Positions 3,521 to 30,159 of a stretch of 38,612 bases of DNA are shown here, in pieces; the stretch's first letter is position 1; each line of letters opens with the position of its first letter. Both the position numbers and the translations under genes were made by a program. Under the pieces are notes generated by a model. The model did not search any database and had not been told where the DNA came from. It was given only the letters and a program-made list of their open reading frames with translations. The DNA is taken from positions 1 to 38,612 of the forward strand of contig JAEUTM010000550.1 of the NCBI GenBank assembly GCA_016788025.1, in the 5' to 3' direction. The stretch is from Bacteroidia bacterium. Its GTDB lineage: Bacteria > Bacteroidota > Bacteroidia > B-17B0 > Aurantibacillaceae.

Positions 3521-5452
3521 TCAGTCAGCCCATTCCCAGGCCGTACGATACATTCCGTGAATGTCGCAATATTCCAGGAACGATTTATAAAATGGATTTG
3601 CACCAATGGTTGCACTGTCACCGATAACTACCAGTTTTTTTCTCGCTCTGGTAATGGCTACATTCATACGACGGAGATCACCCAGAAAGCCTATTTCTTG
3701 TTTTTCATTACTTCTAACAAGCGAAATGTAGATCACATCTCTTTCTTCACCCTGGAAACCATCGATGGTTTTTATCTGCAGGGATAGAACTTTGCTTTTG
3801 TCCAGTTCATAAGCCTCCAGGTTTTCTCTGAGCCATTCCTGTTGCTCTTTATATGGAGAGATAATTCCAATGTCGATGGATTCAGTGTTTTCCGATTTCG
3901 TATAATCACTGAGTAATTGTTGAAGGTGTTTGAATAATATCATACCTTCTTTTGGATTAGAGTAACTCAGGGTTTCAGGATTTTGTTCTTCATCATAACT
4001 ACAGCCTGCCGTATCAATAAACTCAATGGTCTTACTCAGATAACTTTCCTCGTCGTTCACCAGTGTATGAGTTGCAACCGTTTCGTCGGCTATAAGTTCG
4101 TTGTTGTAAAAGTATGCATTGCTGAATCCCATAATTGCTGAATTCATGCGGTATTGCCGGTTTAGCAGAACGGTGGTTTTTGGGATTTCAATACAGCGAT
4201 CAAGCAAGGTTTTATCCAGTCCTCCTCTTTTAGCCTCCACACTCTTTACTACAGGAGGTAATTGAAAATGATCGCCTGAAAGAATCAGTCGTTTACATTT
4301 CAGCAATGGGATCCAAACCATTGGCTCCAAAGCCTGTGAGGCTTCGTCAAAAAACAAAGTATTGAATCGTTTGCGCTGAAGAGCCCTGTGTGTGCTCGTT
4401 ACAGGAGTACAACAAATTACTTTCGAATTTTTGAAAAGTTCGTCAACGAGATAGTCTTCCAGCAACCGGGCTTCTTTAATGCAGTTTCTGGCTTCGGCGT
4501 AAAAGGCAGCGCGCTGTTTTGCGTCTTCTCTGCCAAAGGTTCTTTTATATTTACCGGCCATACGGAAATATTCTTCCGCATTGCGCCTTAGACTTTTGAT
4601 ATCCTTGTAGTAAGGGGAGGACGCAATTTTCCCATCGATACTGCTGTTTTGGAGGTCCTCGGAAATTCTTGCGGGGTGCCCAAGTCTTAGCACATCAATG
4701 CCAAGTTCCGTAAGCTTTTCGGTTAGTAAATCAACGGCAGCATTGGTTGGAGCGCAAACCAACACTTGTCTTTCTTCTTCAAGAGTTAAACGAATCGCTT
4801 GAACTAAACTTGTGGTTTTGCCGGTGCCGGGTGGACCGTGTATCACCCCAATGTCATTTACACTCAGCACATGTCGTATGGCACGATTCTGTGATAAATT
4901 AAGCGACGGAATAATGAGATCTTCCTTTACTGTATCGAAAGTAATAGGAATCAATCCTTCAATCATATCTCGTAACTCGGCAACGCGATTATGTTTTGCA
5001 TTTATCACTTCGTCTAATGCTGATTGCATTTCGGTATAACTGTTGTCATCAAATAAGATGTTAAGCCCCAGCTTACCTTCATAGCACCAGTCTGGCAATT
5101 CATCACTGTGGACAATGAGTTTTAAGGTGTTTTTTGAGACAGATTTAATAGTACCGGTTATTTCAAGAACTTCGTCCTGTCGGTTACTAAAAAGACTCAC
5201 ATTTTTGCCGCTGCTAAATTGATGAGGTTTGTCGATATAAGCAGTGCGCTCCAGTTCAAGGTGCAAAAGTTCCCCCTGTCCAAGTTCTTCGTTGTTTATT
5301 TTTATAGGGTACCAGGTAACTCCGTTTTTTCTACGCTCGTCAAGATTTACACGAAGGAACATTTCGTTATATAAACGAAAATCTTCATCGCGTTCGATTT
5401 TTAAAAGTTGCTTTAAACGGGTAAGACGCTCAATGGCGGAAGATGTCGCCAT
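3521..5452 (-). CDS. Superfamily 1B (Upf1/IGHMBP2/DNA2-like) helicase
   Basis: Walker A GPPGTGKT, APTNAAVD, DEASQ, GDHFQLPP, QYRM, DGFQGEE and RMNVAITRAR. ATG at 5452 overlaps the upstream stop (TAATG). Confidence 0.92.
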   Translation of the reverse strand: MATSSAIERLTRLKQLLKIERDEDFRLYNEMFLRVNLDERRKNGVTWYPIKINNEELGQGELLHLELERTAYIDKPHQFSSGKNVSLFSNRQDEVLEITGTIKSVSKNTLKLIVHSDELPDWCYEGKLGLNILFDDNSYTEMQSALDEVINAKHNRVAELRDMIEGLIPITFDTVKEDLIIPSLNLSQNRAIRHVLSVNDIGVIHGPPGTGKTTSLVQAIRLTLEEERQVLVCAPTNAAVDLLTEKLTELGIDVLRLGHPARISEDLQNSSIDGKIASSPYYKDIKSLRRNAEEYFRMAGKYKRTFGREDAKQRAAFYAEARNCIKEARLLEDYLVDELFKNSKVICCTPVTSTHRALQRKRFNTLFFDEASQALEPMVWIPLLKCKRLILSGDHFQLPPVVKSVEAKRGGLDKTLLDRCIEIPKTTVLLNRQYRMNSAIMGFSNAYFYNNELIADETVATHTLVNDEESYLSKTIEFIDTAGCSYDEEQNPETLSYSNPKEGMILFKHLQQLLSDYTKSENTESIDIGIISPYKEQQEWLRENLEAYELDKSKVLSLQIKTIDGFQGEERDVIYISLVRSNEKQEIGFLGDLRRMNVAITRARKKLVVIGDSATIGANPFYKSFLEYCDIHGMYRTAWEWAD

Positions 5453-22437: not shown

Positions 22438-23559
22438 ATGCTTTACGAAAATATAGTCGGACAACCAGAAGCCAAGAGCCGTTTGATTAAAATGGTTAAA
22501 GAGGAGAGGGTTCCGCACGCGTTATTGTTTTCGGGGCGCGAAGGATGTGGTAATCTGCCCGCAGCTTTGGCTTTCGCACAGCACCTTTATTGCACTGATA
22601 AAAAAGAAAATGGCTCCTGCGGTGTTTGTGCGTCTTGTAGCAAAGTATCGAAACTTGTGCATCCTGATCTTCATCTTGTTTTTCCTATTGCCAAGAGCAA
22701 GGATGTTAAAAGCAGTGACGATCTGATGAAAGAGTTCAGGGAAGCTTTTTTGGCTAACCCTTATTTAAACCTCAACGATTGGTTTAACGAAATAAGCGCA
22801 GAAAATAAACAGCCTATCATTCCGGTAGAAGAAGCAAACGACATTCTAAGAAAGTTAAGCTACACCAGCTATGAAGGTTCTTACAAGATGATGCTTATCT
22901 GGGAGCCGGAAAAAATGAACGCAGAAGCTGCTAATAAGCTACTCAAGATCCTGGAAGAGCCGCCTGAGCAAACTATTTTTATTCTGGTATCCAATAATCC
23001 TGAACAATTGCTCGCTACTATTTTTTCACGTGTACAGCAAATTCCTTTTTATTCTATATCTGAGGCCGATATTTCGACTGCACTTGTTGAACGTTTCAAA
23101 ATAAATTCGGAAGTGGCTAAGCAAACAGCTATTCTTGCTAACGGAAGCTATTCTGAGGCGCTTCATTTGATTTCCCAAAACGAGGAAAGCGTTTCTTTTC
23201 TTACGAATTTTCAGGCCTTTATGCGCCTTGCACTCAAATTCGACTGCTCGAAGGCTTTGTCCTGGATTGATGACAATGCAACAATTGGCCGTGAAAAGCA
23301 AAAACAATTTTTGCAGTATGGGCTTGAAGTGTTTCGCGACAGTCTTATGTATAATTTTGGCGACCGGAACCTTGTCAGGTTAAGCGGACAGGAAAAACAG
23401 TTCCTGGAGAAATTTGCACCATTTGTAAATCAAAAAAATTATGAAAGACTTGTGGAAGAGTTTAATTCCAATTACTACTATGTAGAAAGGAATGCAAATC
23501 CAAAAATCCTTTTTATGGATCTTCTTCTGAAGACCAATGAACTAATCAATCTCAAATAA
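22438..23559 (+). CDS. holB: DNA polymerase III subunit delta'
   Basis: HALLFSG, Zn cluster C...CGVCASC, HPDLH, AANKLLKILEEPP and TIFSR. Confidence 0.9.
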   Translation: MLYENIVGQPEAKSRLIKMVKEERVPHALLFSGREGCGNLPAALAFAQHLYCTDKKENGSCGVCASCSKVSKLVHPDLHLVFPIAKSKDVKSSDDLMKEFREAFLANPYLNLNDWFNEISAENKQPIIPVEEANDILRKLSYTSYEGSYKMMLIWEPEKMNAEAANKLLKILEEPPEQTIFILVSNNPEQLLATIFSRVQQIPFYSISEADISTALVERFKINSEVAKQTAILANGSYSEALHLISQNEESVSFLTNFQAFMRLALKFDCSKALSWIDDNATIGREKQKQFLQYGLEVFRDSLMYNFGDRNLVRLSGQEKQFLEKFAPFVNQKNYERLVEEFNSNYYYVERNANPKILFMDLLLKTNELINLK

Positions 23560-23656
23560 AAAAGCCGCCTCACACACAGGCAGCTTTTTCGCGAGGATTA
23601 AACCTCATTTAATTAAAACAACTATAAACTACAACCGCATAAGCGGCGTCTATTCA
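23557..23656 (-). ncRNA. Candidate ECF-sigma-dependent small RNA (~100 nt; ends approximate)
   Basis: Lies between a repeat of the sigma-upstream motif (23663-23689) and an intrinsic terminator. Two internal hairpins (CCGC-UUAU-GCGG; GAGG-UUUAAU-CCUC) flank a single-stranded U/G-rich tract. No family recognised. Confidence 0.5.
23559..23589 (-). terminator. Intrinsic terminator, probably bidirectional (holB versus the PKD/sRNA unit)
   Basis: - strand AAAAAGCTGCCT-GTGTGTG-AGGCGGCTTTTT, fully paired with one G-U on the - strand (a C-A mismatch on +). Confidence 0.8.
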
Positions 23657-23662
23657 TCTATA

Positions 23663-23689
23663 TACAAGTTAAATGAGAAAATAGTTGGG
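23663..23689 (-). promoter_or_regulatory. Putative ECF sigma promoter, copy 2 (CCCAACT-N16-TGTA)
   Basis: Same boxes and spacing as 29981-30007. Begins 3 nt after the PKD gene stop codon. Confidence 0.6.
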
Positions 23690-23692
23690 ATT

Positions 23693-26632
23693 TTAACGTT
23701 GGATAACAATTCTTTTAGTGATTTCCCGGTTTCCGTTCCTGAGTTTAAGCAGATAGACTCCCGAAATCTGACTTTCCAGGTCAATAATTTTGGAAAGGTT
23801 TGTGCTAAACGTGTTAAACGTTTCTGTATAGATACAAGACCCAAGAAGATTGTAGATCGCAATATCTGTTTGTTCCGGCGAGAGACCATTCACAGAGATC
23901 GTAAATCTGCCATTGTTGGGATTTGGATAAGCTGAATAACCTGTGTTAAGCACCTCTTCATTAACCCGCAACGAAAGCGCAGGCGGAATCACATTTACAT
24001 TCACAATTCCTGAGGTTTCTTCAGATCCTTTACTCAGGAGTTGGTTCATACAAAAGGACGAAACTGACCCGCAGGAAGCAGTCACAGTGAGACATATGGA
24101 GTAAGTGCCTGAAGCCGAATACTGGTGTGAAGTATAAAGTGTATTACTGGTGTCGCCATCGCCCCAAGTCCAGCTTGCAGCACTTAAATTCCAGGGATAG
24201 TCGGGAATAGCGAACCAGTATCCAGCGCTGTTGGTTGGGATGAGTGTAAAATTAGATATCGCACTACATGGAATCCCAGTAACATTAATATACTGTGCGA
24301 GACTGTCGTGGCAAATTGGAGTAATAGTGTCCTTTATTGTTAACGACACGAGATAACTTCCCGCATTACTGTAGTTATGAATTGGATTCGTTGCATAAGA
24401 AATCACACCGTCTCCAAAGTTCCAGTAATTTTTAGCATAAGCCTGGTTATTATACGTAGACGTGTTGCTGAAATTTACAGAACCGTTTAAACCCAGAGTG
24501 TGCGAAAAATTTGCAAGCATATTACAGGTATAGCTTGTCGTTACAAACAAGGTATAGCTGCTAGTACAAACTGGCCAGCCACTGGCATTACTCGCAAACA
24601 AATGCACTTGATATTGACCCATTGTACTGTAGGTGTGAACGGGTTGAAAGCTGTTAGAAAAGGTCCCGTCGCCAAAATCCCATGTATAAGATGTTGAAGC
24701 CACCGTTCCGGTTGTGGTGTTCGTAAATGAAAAAGTATTTGTGCTTACAAGAATCGCTAAAAAGTCCGCATTAAGATTGCAAGGCGTACCGGGTACCAAT
24801 ACAGTTTGACTATTTGAAGATGAACAGCCTCCTGGACTAGTGAGAATATGAAGGGTGACTGTGTAAATGCCTGGAGCAGGATAAGTATAATTAGAAGAAA
24901 CGCTGCCAGCAAGCGAAGTCCCAGTGCCATAATCCCAGGTATAAGTGGTTGAAGACCCGGCGCCAGAAGATGTGCTGAGAAACGAAACATTCCCATTGGA
25001 ATTTGCTGCATAAGTAAAGCTGGCGTTACAGGTGCCGGAATTGACGATAGTAACAGTATGCATCACAGAATCAATGCATCCAAAACCGCTGTTTGCAATC
25101 AGTTTAACTGTAAAGGTGCCATTGGCAGAATAAAGATGAGAAGTACTGGTTCCGCTACCTATGGCCGAGTTATCTCCGTAGTCCCACGAATAAGTGGTTA
25201 AGGTATTTGCACCGGTACTGGTGCTTGAAAATGAATACAAACCAACGGCACCCGGCGTACTTATAAAATTGGCATCAATGGTACATGTAGGATTTACAGG
25301 AGCACTAATGGCCAGGGAACAAAAAGGAGCGCTGCTCGCTATCCCATACATAACCTGGTAAACCGCATTGGATGTATACGTGTTACTTACAACAAACGAA
25401 TTTGTTCCCTGCGCGGAATTGCCGTCTCCGAAATACCAATAATGGAAAGTGTTGGTGTTGCTTGGACTTGCGGTACCGGTAAAGTTTACCACACTGCTAG
25501 TGGTTTGTGAAACAGCATTAAAGTTCAGGGAACATACGCTGACACTTAAAGCAAATGACGAGGTGCACGACGCGATAAATGGATTGCTCGCAATAAGCTG
25601 GACCGTGTACAACCCAGTGGATGAATAAGTATGGATGGAAGGAAATGTATTGGATGTGGCTCCGTCGCCATAATTTACAGTATAAGATGTGCCGGAATAC
25701 ACTCCCTGCGAAGTGTTTTGAAGACTAATGCCTCCATTGATCTGAGTATAGTTAAAACCTGCCTGGAGATTACAGCCAGCGGAAGTATAAGTGCTGACAA
25801 CTAAAGTTTTGGTAACGGAACCAGAATACGGCGGATTTGTGGCATTAGTAATCTGGAGGGTTACTGGGTAGGCACCATTTGAGGTGTACATTACAACTGC
25901 ACTTGGAGTTCCGGTTACAGTATAGTTGGGCTGACCATTGCCGTAATTCCAATCGTAATCAGTAAATGTGCCCGCAGGAGCAGAAATACTTGTGAGTGTA
26001 AATATGCCAGAGCCGGATGGTGTGTTTGTAAAATTTACTAAACCTGCAACAACCGGCATAACTGTACTTTGAATACAGCCTTGCGTAGTATTATTTATTG
26101 CAGTTAGATAAACTAAATATGCACCAGGAGTAGTATATGTATGCGATGTTGCAGAACCTACACCCGTGGTGCCGTCTCCGTAATTCCAACTGTATGTTGT
26201 AGAACCCGTTGTGCCGGTGGAATTATTTATGTAGGTGTTTACAAGATTATTACCCTGTGAGTATCCAAATTGAGGCACAATCCCGCAGGTACCTCCGGTA
26301 AGAGAATTCACCATGATATTTGTAGTCATGGTATCTATACAACTTCCAGAGAAATAAGTCAGACTCACAGGGTAAACACCGTTTAATGTGTATGATGTGA
26401 AGGCTGTAATGGTTCCTCCGGAAGTAATGCTGGAACTACCGTTTCCGAAAGCCCAGGTATAGGTGCTTCCAGAAGTAGTAGGAGAGGAAGTGCTTAGAAA
26501 TGTGGCATTGCCATTTGCAGCCAGCGTGTACACAAAAGAAGCATTGCATTGCGCAAGCCCCGTTTTAACGCATACCGTTAGGAGTAACGATACAAATATC
26601 TTAATGCTCTTCTGTAAAGCCCGGAATTTCAT
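23693..26632 (-). CDS. Poly-PKD-domain T9SS cargo protein
   Basis: Signal peptide (GLAQ), about 10 PKD units (C-x-A-x-F...F-x-x-TS...Y-x-W-x-FGDG...H-x-Y...G-x-Y-x-V-x-L) and CTD AYPNPNNG...GVYLL...KRIVIQ. Confidence 0.88.
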   Translation of the reverse strand: MKFRALQKSIKIFVSLLLTVCVKTGLAQCNASFVYTLAANGNATFLSTSSPTTSGSTYTWAFGNGSSSITSGGTITAFTSYTLNGVYPVSLTYFSGSCIDTMTTNIMVNSLTGGTCGIVPQFGYSQGNNLVNTYINNSTGTTGSTTYSWNYGDGTTGVGSATSHTYTTPGAYLVYLTAINNTTQGCIQSTVMPVVAGLVNFTNTPSGSGIFTLTSISAPAGTFTDYDWNYGNGQPNYTVTGTPSAVVMYTSNGAYPVTLQITNATNPPYSGSVTKTLVVSTYTSAGCNLQAGFNYTQINGGISLQNTSQGVYSGTSYTVNYGDGATSNTFPSIHTYSSTGLYTVQLIASNPFIASCTSSFALSVSVCSLNFNAVSQTTSSVVNFTGTASPSNTNTFHYWYFGDGNSAQGTNSFVVSNTYTSNAVYQVMYGIASSAPFCSLAISAPVNPTCTIDANFISTPGAVGLYSFSSTSTGANTLTTYSWDYGDNSAIGSGTSTSHLYSANGTFTVKLIANSGFGCIDSVMHTVTIVNSGTCNASFTYAANSNGNVSFLSTSSGAGSSTTYTWDYGTGTSLAGSVSSNYTYPAPGIYTVTLHILTSPGGCSSSNSQTVLVPGTPCNLNADFLAILVSTNTFSFTNTTTGTVASTSYTWDFGDGTFSNSFQPVHTYSTMGQYQVHLFASNASGWPVCTSSYTLFVTTSYTCNMLANFSHTLGLNGSVNFSNTSTYNNQAYAKNYWNFGDGVISYATNPIHNYSNAGSYLVSLTIKDTITPICHDSLAQYINVTGIPCSAISNFTLIPTNSAGYWFAIPDYPWNLSAASWTWGDGDTSNTLYTSHQYSASGTYSICLTVTASCGSVSSFCMNQLLSKGSEETSGIVNVNVIPPALSLRVNEEVLNTGYSAYPNPNNGRFTISVNGLSPEQTDIAIYNLLGSCIYTETFNTFSTNLSKIIDLESQISGVYLLKLRNGNREITKRIVIQR

Positions 26633-27763: not shown

Positions 27764-29398
27764 TTATTTTTTTAGAATATTATAAACCAGTGAAATTTTT
27801 AAGCCAGTGTTTCTTTCAAATACATTTGAATGAAAAAAGGTGTTGTCTTTTGTGTCAACCAGACCGTAGAAAAGTTCGGCATTGAATGAAAGATTTGAGA
27901 GCAAGCGGCGACGATAGAACACGCTGGTCTGAACATCAAGGGGGCTGAATCCTTGGGTGTAACCTTTGTCTTTGTAGATGGTGTGCCCATCTGTGGAATT
28001 GATCGTTTGATGATAGGTCTCCACATCCGATTCAACAGTTAAGAGATAGGCAAAATTGCATCCCAACCCAACAATGTTCTTTTGATTGAGTCGATAGTGG
28101 ACTCGTAACGGGGCTAGCAGGTAATGTATTTTGGTAGGTGTAAACACAGTCACGGTACTTTCTTCACCAAGTCCAAGCTGACTTACTTTTGTGACGTGGT
28201 TGCTATAGTTCAGATTGGAAACAGTAGTGTATTGGAGCCCCAGGGATATGGTAAGTTTATTATGTACCGCCTGGAAATAATTAATGCCGACAAATGGGTT
28301 GTATCCGGCGGCGTCTGTATTTCCCGGATTCTTCCAGCCATAAAAATAACTAACACCTGCTTCTATGGAAAGAAAAACAGGTTTCTCTTTAATGTCATAG
28401 GTTAGTTTTGTGGCATGGTCGTTTTCAAGCATAGCGCTGTCAGGGGCAGGCAGAAGAGGGTAAATGCCGACACCTTTTGGTGGTTCTGAACTGGATTTTG
28501 AAGACAATTCCGGATTTTTGACTTCGTTAGCAAGCTCTGGGTTAATCTGAACAGGTTGAATAAGGGTGGAGCGCGGGTTTTGTTCTTCTTTTAATTCTTT
28601 ACTCTCCGATTGTTGAGAGGAATCGTTGTCTGTTAATCCCAACAGTTTTGTACTTGTATTTATTTCTTCTTCCTCACTGGCGCTAACTGTTTCCGGCTCA
28701 GATTTTATTTCTGGTTTAACCTGGGCCAACATTTTGATGTCTGGAGTAACATCTGAATTGTTGTCGGTTACTGAAGTCGCCGGTCTGATCTCTGATTTTG
28801 ATTCCCCGGACTGAATACTAACTGATGCAGTTGTTTGAGTTTGTGCCTCGGTCGTTTTCTCCGGGAAACTTGTAAGTGCAACTTCTTGCTTCGGTTTTGA
28901 TTCTCTGACAGGAGTTGTGTTTTCAGGAATGAGCTTTTCAACGATAGGATCCGCAACGGTTTTTGCAGGGTGTGTATTGTTTGTAATATGTGCCGCTGTT
29001 GTCGTTTCAATGATTGGAGCCGCTTCTTTCTCAGATGATTTTAGAATCGGCTTTGTTTTTGGACGCACATTTGTCTTTTCTCCAGCACTTATACCTGTTT
29101 TTTGAAGATTTTCGTTTTTGACAACATCTTGAGAGCTTCCAGATATGACTCTTTCCACTTTAGGTTTGGCCGCGGTTATTTTTGGACTATCGGAAGGATA
29201 TAAAAGATATGCGCCGGCAATGCCAGCTATAAAAAGCAATAAGGATGAAAGAACTATCGAAGTACCTTTCCACCCCCTGGCGCCCCTGGACGCTTCTATC
29301 ATCTCACTGGCCTTTTCCCAATTAGCTTCATCAAATTCAAATTCTTTTGAATTGACCAAATCGCTTAGCGATTTCTTGAATTTGCCTTCGTTATTCAT
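27764..29398 (-). CDS. Putative anti-sigma factor: short N-terminal domain + TM helix + long low-complexity linker + C-terminal outer-membrane beta-barrel-like domain
   Basis: Overlaps the sigma stop codon. N-terminal F-D-E-x-x-W motif, hydrophobic helix at about aa 45-66, S/T/E/K/P-rich region at about aa 70-335, and alternating beta-strand pattern from about aa 340 (YLLAPL, YGLVD, GLKISLVYNI). Confidence 0.62.
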   Translation of the reverse strand: MNNEGKFKKSLSDLVNSKEFEFDEANWEKASEMIEASRGARGWKGTSIVLSSLLLFIAGIAGAYLLYPSDSPKITAAKPKVERVISGSSQDVVKNENLQKTGISAGEKTNVRPKTKPILKSSEKEAAPIIETTTAAHITNNTHPAKTVADPIVEKLIPENTTPVRESKPKQEVALTSFPEKTTEAQTQTTASVSIQSGESKSEIRPATSVTDNNSDVTPDIKMLAQVKPEIKSEPETVSASEEEEINTSTKLLGLTDNDSSQQSESKELKEEQNPRSTLIQPVQINPELANEVKNPELSSKSSSEPPKGVGIYPLLPAPDSAMLENDHATKLTYDIKEKPVFLSIEAGVSYFYGWKNPGNTDAAGYNPFVGINYFQAVHNKLTISLGLQYTTVSNLNYSNHVTKVSQLGLGEESTVTVFTPTKIHYLLAPLRVHYRLNQKNIVGLGCNFAYLLTVESDVETYHQTINSTDGHTIYKDKGYTQGFSPLDVQTSVFYRRRLLSNLSFNAELFYGLVDTKDNTFFHSNVFERNTGLKISLVYNILKK

Positions 29399-29980: not shown

Positions 29981-30007
29981 TACAATTAAAACCCCTGAAA
30001 AGTTGGG
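29981..30007 (-). promoter_or_regulatory. Putative ECF autoregulatory promoter, copy 1 (CCCAACT-N16-TGTA)
   Basis: 23 nt upstream of the sigma ATG. AAC-containing -35-like box, as typical for ECF promoters. Duplicated at 23663-23689. Confidence 0.6.
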
Positions 30008-30043: not shown

Positions 30044-30051
30044 CAAATATA
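30044..30051 (-). promoter_or_regulatory. Housekeeping -7 element (TATATTTG) upstream of the ECF operon
   Basis: TAnnTTTG match 36 nt upstream of the putative ECF -35 box. Confidence 0.55.
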
Positions 30052-30159
30052 CAAAAACCGCCCTGTTTTAGACTTGAAAATGAGCGGATTAGCGGTTTTT
30101 TCGAGCGAATTACCCGAAAGGTGGCCGTTTCAAGCTGATTTAACAAATAAAGAGCTCAG

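Follow-up and report, generated by a model that had tools for sequence, protein, structure and literature searches.

We found that an ECF sigma factor operon of an uncultured Bacteroidota bacterium ends in a second copy of what is very probably the sigma factor's own promoter, from which a sigma-dependent, gene-less transcript of ~100 nt is likely to be made, and that promoter-led tails of this kind recur in related loci, several of them as conserved RNA families. That the RNA from the downstream copy is a functional base-pairing sRNA, active upon release of the sigma factor, is a prediction to which we give about an even chance. The window, by which we mean the whole 38,612-nt stretch of DNA that was analyzed, carries this membrane-stress type operon on the minus strand, in the order ECF sigma, 544-aa protein, PKD lipoprotein, and 979-aa PKD/T9SS protein, and the operon converges on holB (Table 1). 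The 544-aa protein has a short N-terminus followed by a single hydrophobic helix (hydropathy peak at 48-66), a low-complexity linker with 63% STEKPQN, and a C-terminus that looks like an outer membrane protein β-barrel, resembling PF13568/PF13505; a Pfam search with the protein gave no hit. An inner-membrane helix, a disordered linker, and a C-terminal β-barrel in a protein encoded next to the sigma gene make up the layout of the Dma anti-sigma factors, which the 544-aa protein resembles in each part. Described examples of such dual-membrane-spanning anti-sigmas, paired with ECF21 sigmas, are Das1/Dma1 (BT_4720/21), Das2/Dma2, and EcfO/Reo (PMC10927553). As described there, a sigma gene is followed by an anti-sigma gene encoding an N-terminal helix, a long disordered linker, and a C-terminal β-barrel, and a lipoprotein belongs to the regulon, as in the window; the cargo differs, consisting of a PKD lipoprotein and PKD/T9SS proteins here and of NigD in the Das/Dma systems. 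By the layout of the neighboring putative anti-sigma, the system is Dma/ECF21-like; the NCBIfam class of the sigma is generic ECF only. The RNA-guided dCas12f-sigmaE system (PMC13472631) was also considered and set aside, because the genes after the sigma gene look like those for an anti-sigma, a lipoprotein, and PKD proteins.

Table 1. Positions of the operon, the promoter copies, the predicted RNA, and the tail RNA families of related loci
Feature	Position	Strand	Remark
ECF sigma factor, 188 aa	29391..29957	-	NCBIfam gives generic ECF only
Putative anti-sigma, 544 aa, Dma-like layout	27764..29398	-	
Putative lipoprotein with PKD domain, 370 aa	26648..27760	-	
PKD-repeat protein, 979 aa, T9SS sorting tail	23693..26632	-	stop TAA 23695-23693
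holB (DNA polymerase III delta')	22438..23559	+	converges on terminator; stop 23557-23559
Autoregulatory promoter copy (probable), 24 nt 5' of sigma ATG	29981..30007	-	sequence and family conservation
-35 box CCCAACT, downstream copy	23683..23689	-	sequence; kept family-wide
-10 box TGTA, downstream copy	23663..23666	-	clade-specific; CGTA or TGTT in paralogous clades
Predicted gene-less transcript, ~100 nt	23557..23656	-	5' end inferred
11-codon ORF MNRRRLCGCSL	23622..23657	-	ATG reads GTG in two other samples
Hairpin 1, 4 G-C pairs	23635..23646	-	extendable via pairing of 23657-23652 with 23629-23624
U-rich tract, predicted single-stranded, putative seed	23607..23623	-	
Hairpin 2, 4 pairs	23593..23606	-	
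Intrinsic terminator	23559..23589	both	stronger on -; common to holB
Family A, ~100 nt, behind CGTA promoter	L204-L211, L214, L217, L218, L220, L224		e.g., L217:4172-4275 (+)
Family A, stand-alone copies	L302, L304-L307, L311		
Tail families B-F	L243-L249, L251, L253, L254; L202, L225, L228-L231, L235, L238		

A preliminary description of this DNA had reported CCCAACT, 16 nt, and TGTA on the minus strand, 3 nt past the TAA of the PKD/T9SS gene, with a twin of matching boxes and spacing upstream of the sigma gene, and both copies are where it had placed them. The pattern CCCAACT-N14-18-TGTA matched the window twice, with 0.11 matches expected and none of 100 shuffles reaching two, and with the 16-nt spacer it occurs at just these 2 places in the whole 4.13-Mb genome. 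Since a hand estimate gives ~2 chance matches per genome, it is the position of the copies that is noteworthy rather than their count. The stretch is not an assembly artefact, because contigs from three independent studies (X1, X2; X13) span it without a joint. A scan for sigma-70 promoters found none, and the main terminator was absent from the list produced by that scan. Upstream of the ECF promoter of the sigma gene, TATATTTG at 30046-30053 (minus strand) matches the Bacteroidota housekeeping -7 box TAnnTTTG. In many orthologues, another promoter copy is found ~120-140 nt 5′ of the sigma's own (L032:475, L064:104, L073:9027, L084:9819, L085:345, and others), often with a TAnnTTTG-like box between the two; an extra upstream copy of this type was not found in the window.

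Comparison with related loci, which come mostly from MAGs classed as Bacteroidia, Bacteroidetes, or Sphingobacteriaceae, argues that this motif is the sigma factor's own promoter. CAAC-N17-TGT(A/T) stands upstream of 46 of 50 sigma homologues with at least 62% identity, and in 45 of these 46 it lies 22-34 nt from the ATG; three of the four homologues lacking it are at contig edges and the fourth is a CGTA-clade locus. The same -35 box is combined with CGTA at 49 of 54 more distant, paralogous loci, and TGTT occurs as the -10 variant of one small clade. Downstream copies follow the same division: all 20 listed in CGTA clades read CGT(A/T), those in the TGTA clade read TGTA apart from single GGTA or TGTT variants, and in the 9 genomes that have both operon types every downstream copy has the -10 variant of its own operon. 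Because the loci are kin, the -10 variation represents a few independent switches and not dozens. Since the motif precedes nearly all close homologues and the downstream -10 box tracks its own sigma, the motif is very probably the cognate, autoregulatory promoter of this ECF sigma, as the preliminary description had proposed, and by conservation and co-variation such a promoter lies directly upstream of the predicted RNA. In Flavobacterium psychrophilum, ECF promoters ahead of T9SS genes are described as having a CGT -10 box (PMC9723704). The genome of the window itself holds up to five paralogous sigma/anti-sigma/lipoprotein modules (C57, C286, C294, C345, C628), among which TGTA, TGTT, and CGTA promoters are all found; as the C57 module has a TGTA promoter, cross-talk with the C57 sigma is possible.

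Going by the usual spacing of ECF promoters, we take the 5′ end of the RNA to be at about 23655-23657. Both hairpins, the terminator, and the 11-codon ORF of the preliminary description are present, and the terminator does pair better on the minus strand (-18.5 kcal/mol, versus -11.7 kcal/mol on the plus strand). It abuts the holB stop codon, has a T-run on both strands, and serves both converging genes, and is therefore no evidence for an sRNA. The tract described as unpaired is predicted to be single-stranded only over 23623-23607, and base-paired to the start of the RNA in its 5′ part. The folding z-score of -4.6 is mostly due to the terminator, and without it the body folds modestly (33 of 1,000 shuffles fold as well). 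As is typical of an sRNA, a terminator follows the promoter within about 50-200 nt and there is no conserved ORF in between. The body also has the base composition of a gene-less unit: U minus A is +0.13, compared to a median of +0.09 in gene-less units (n = 37) and -0.34 in gene leaders behind the same promoter, none of which (0 of 41) is as high. Among other samples, two (X1 and the loose end of X18) lack the A at 23657, a loss that the predicted pairing would survive as G-U, and one yielded a piece with 6 differences over the 160 nt of 23460-23619, a stretch that takes in hairpin 2, the terminator, and some of the tract.

The start of the predicted RNA allows a coding interpretation, in which the promoter would make a leaderless mRNA encoding the peptide MNRRRLCGCSL (11 residues). 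We consider this very improbable. The ATG at 23657 coincides with the predicted start, leaderless mRNAs make up 5.5% of those described for F. psychrophilum (PMC9723704), and a short hydrophobic ORF follows the promoter in some loci of genus g24. However, no homologue of the stretch was found in our searches, and the 1-nt deletion changes the ATG to GTG, which only weakens the case for the peptide, since the frame is kept. We likewise judge it unlikely that the stretch is nothing more than 3′ UTR of the operon with a silent motif, or that it acts mainly through transcription that runs against holB. The terminator is common to holB, and the downstream copy has a PWM score of 17.3, close to the bottom of the range spanned by the training set (16.5-42.4). 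Against this, neither box nor the spacing departs from the pattern, at a place where relatives keep a promoter, and the PKD-holB gap is 134 nt here, while 17 of 19 orthologous junctions have 46-85 nt.

The RNA of the window is, by its sequence, a singleton that we could file in no Rfam or tail family. A promoter at the PKD-holB junction was found in none of the 19 other orthologous genomes, and the pattern of promoter plus tract in none of 184 other genomes. BLAST of the body against 75 genus genomes gave short matches only, the best being the terminator; a model of the window unit itself gave 5 weak hits, none with a promoter; nhmmer with six RNA families had no hit in the window; and the covariance model of family A (see below) matched neither the window's own genome nor this strand of the locus. 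By Smith-Waterman alignment to 9 groups, the best likeness was equalled by 29 of 500 shuffles, and no sequence or structure match to the tail families A-F was seen. No Rfam family reaches its gathering score in the stretch, the best being Phe_leader with 28.3 of 55 bits (19.5 of 80.4 bits for BTnc231). No conserved seed was found in related genomes, in which the closest long contig has ~76% sigma identity. The conservation that had been expected of the downstream copy and its hairpins is thus not seen at orthologous junctions. Likenesses noted by eye, of the 5′ part of the body to DUF805b leaders and of its 3′ part to the PKD 3′ UTR of G009, disappeared against shuffles, and a seeming resemblance to family D (GUGAAUA..ACGC) fell short of significance (55 of 500 shuffles).

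Relatives of the TGTA clade usually have the downstream copy just past a stop codon inside the operon, where it drives a further PKD/T9SS gene. The preliminary description had missed this use of the promoter position in sister genomes, which raises the explanation that the window's copy is a relic: an orphaned internal promoter whose second PKD/T9SS gene was deleted, joining the promoter to the 3′ UTR and terminator of that gene, so that any RNA made would be functionless. We regard this as a serious possibility, though one appreciably short of even. In the lipoprotein tree, the nearest loci with a downstream promoter (L074 and L164) have it drive a second PKD gene in the corresponding place, and L032, L084, and L092 lack both promoter and second gene; the 979-aa PKD protein, moreover, clusters with first-position PKD genes that have no promoter (FastTree, as for all trees, with modest support around the window's locus). 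As the nearest loci have both or neither, and given this grouping, the window promoter corresponds in position to the one that serves the second cargo gene elsewhere. PKD cassettes are often gained and lost (0-3 per locus), ordinary PKD 3′ UTRs also have U/G-rich tracts, L072 looks like a fusion of leader and 3′ UTR, and the body has no homologue. Arguing the other way, the body is not significantly like 30 TGTA leaders (226 of 500 shuffles score as high) or 52 PKD 3′ UTRs (340 of 500), and it has neither a DUF805b remnant nor an A-rich leader composition. The same end state has been kept as RNA families in other clades, and loss of the gene would be compatible with a later function. The body sequence by itself would fit either an sRNA or a relic.

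The leaders between the downstream copy and the PKD/T9SS gene are mostly 50-75 nt long, and 23 of 41 carry the DUF805b motif (RF02914), which scored above the Rfam gathering threshold in both leaders tested (L145 and L156). The motif (GCYGAAAA...GAGUARGC ahead of the gene) is absent from the window. It lies before promoter-driven PKD/T9SS genes at L145:1448-1483 (-) and L156:1543-1578 (+), and in the window's own genome near position 3805 (-) of C57. Across the motif, GCC/GGC, GCU/AGC, and ACC/GGU pairs that are missing from the Rfam structure line suggest a pseudoknot. A literature search for DUF805 together with RNA motif found no paper.

We scanned related loci for a promoter copy, 60-150 nt, and a terminator with no gene in between, over as much as 9 kb past the lipoprotein gene. 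Of 43 promoter-to-terminator units, 39 were kept and four dropped (two inside a gene, one off the operon, one with a small ORF), which places a gene-less unit at the operon tail in 34 of 129 loci, a minimum figure since many contigs end before the operon tail. Among 40 other operon ends of the TGTA clade, just three (L072, L109, L177) show such a unit; these are scattered on the tree and mutually unlike, and L072 is a weak match to the model of family A (22.6 bits, E 0.011). Among 76 genus genomes, 14 keep family A at E < 1e-15; it has 12 loci in the tree. Its repeated GUUCUGUGUU is invariant and unpaired, and 5 of the 13 terminator pairs are changed on both sides. A family A model built without the promoter gave 53 matches; among 30 of these, 17 further hits were examined, and seven have CCAAC-N17-CGTA directly upstream, six of them away from the operon behind unrelated genes. 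Families B and C belong to other paralogous clades, and D, E, and F to a second genus, in which several loci have them directly behind a PKD gene, as in the window. Families A-F resemble the RNA of the window in position, cognate promoter, length (80-125 nt), U/G-rich tract, and strong terminator; they differ from it in being kept across 2-14 genomes each and in lying behind CGTA promoters, and they too are absent from Rfam. At gathering scores, Rfam had nothing for L217, L202, L229, L177, L245, L261, or L286.

Taken together, the recurring gene-less tails, the several conserved families, and the promoter-bearing stand-alone copies of family A make a noncoding arm of Dma/ECF21-like systems well supported, as far as comparative sequence goes, at the level of the family. 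The preliminary description had cast the RNA as the regulatory arm of its sigma factor; promoter-led, gene-less tails do recur in the family, whereas the window's own copy and its hairpins were not found conserved. In genus g24 the families frequently occur as tandem pairs in which each unit has a promoter copy to itself, and several of the B-F families carry a start-codon complement, UCAUAG or UCAUAA. For family A, we looked in 5 genomes for complements of the seed ahead of ATG and found 16 overlapping matches, 12 of them from a single genome, versus 14 for a reversed control, so a conserved target is unsupported.

Small RNAs behind envelope-stress ECF sigma promoters are known from enterobacteria, where MicA and RybB depend on sigmaE. 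Others are enterobacterial MicL (PMC4102768) and, in Fusobacterium nucleatum, FoxI (PMC9546586) and FoxJ (PMC11005410). The window unit would share with these five a small RNA, here predicted, behind such a promoter; it differs in phylum and sigma group, in lying at the end of the operon of its own sigma, and in having no likeness in Rfam. If functional, the RNA would, by this analogy, work as a sigmaE-type sRNA. GibS (PMC7366714) and FopS (PMC11697453) of Bacteroides thetaiotaomicron are described as having an AU-rich single-stranded seed and a terminator, which are also predicted for the RNA of the window, and as pairing over start codons. FopS, unlike the RNA of the window, is reported to have a housekeeping promoter, and GibS a non-canonical promoter, PM2, linked to the ECF sigmas SigW-1/SigH-1 (PMC12596196); the cited accounts do not locate either RNA at the end of a sigma operon.

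If the system works as Das1/Dma1 and EcfO/Reo do, outer membrane stress would free the sigma from the Dma-like anti-sigma, upon which sigma-bound RNA polymerase would fire both promoter copies. The U-rich tract could then pair with A-rich start codon regions and lower translation, a mode of action described for GibS and FopS of Bacteroides. UAUAGUUG, adjoining the tract, is complementary to A-rich starts of type CAACUAUG, and the UAUAGUUGUUUU stretch of the RNA to those of type AAACAACUAUG, with several of the top predicted duplexes spanning the start codon. Over the whole body, complementarity to start codons was not above that of shuffles (24 of 60 as high), in a scan based on a stacking table that ignored accessibility. 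A 22-nt tract, chosen after the fact, did only slightly better (1 of 44 shuffles was stronger at rank 100), and by crude gene classes its top 100 targets include 51 cytoplasmic-class genes, compared to 49-72 for shuffles. Envelope genes are thus not clearly enriched, and the repression of outer membrane mRNAs proposed in the preliminary description finds no support in target prediction; we keep it as a hypothesis only, by analogy. The slot behind the internal promoter appears to be exchangeable, holding PKD/T9SS cargo with a DUF805b leader in most orthologues and an RNA in others, and the window's copy most likely arose by loss or replacement of a second PKD gene in this lineage.

Dma/ECF21 systems of Bacteroidota govern vesicle output and outer membrane stress, and deletion of dma1 or dma2 is reported to lower several PUL and S-layer transcripts (PMC13088901). 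Known sigmaE-type sRNAs come from Proteobacteria and Fusobacteria, and the literature that we searched names none for Dma/ECF21 systems: the words sRNA and small RNA are absent from the main text of PMC10927553, PMC13088901, PMC13114119, and PMC9308784, although supplements or subscription papers (e.g., TSS tables of B. thetaiotaomicron) may hold some. The motif and the conserved candidate RNAs make repression by sRNAs of these sigmas directly testable, cultured Bacteroides included. If it is an sRNA, the window's copy would exemplify sRNA birth by gene loss; the finding for the family, which is the more valuable part, stands even if this copy is a relic.

Away from the operon, the window's genome has a stand-alone TGTA-type promoter followed by a structured RNA of ~155 nt and a terminator (C582:935-1121, plus strand; also L261:462-622). 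This unit is kept in 3 of 184 other genomes (G001, G010, G089) with its promoter, a AGUGUGUU motif, and an identical terminator, which makes its RNA, judged from sequence, the better conserved and better supported sRNA candidate for this sigma. We tentatively propose, with a confidence just below even, a widespread and undescribed noncoding arm in which an exchangeable tail slot would hold either secreted PKD cargo or one of at least six unrelated sRNAs, born upon loss of the cargo, with the RNA of the window as a newborn and that of C582 as its conserved partner. A second gene-less candidate (C558:6071, plus strand; L286) lies between genes that look secreted and has a TGTA-type promoter at a gene end, with a terminator after ~85 nt. 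Finally, in genus g24 (L243, L244:4279-4454, L254) we observed a recurrent short hydrophobic ORF that resembles the N-terminus of neighboring lipoproteins; it lies behind a promoter copy in two loci and may be a small protein or a truncated gene.
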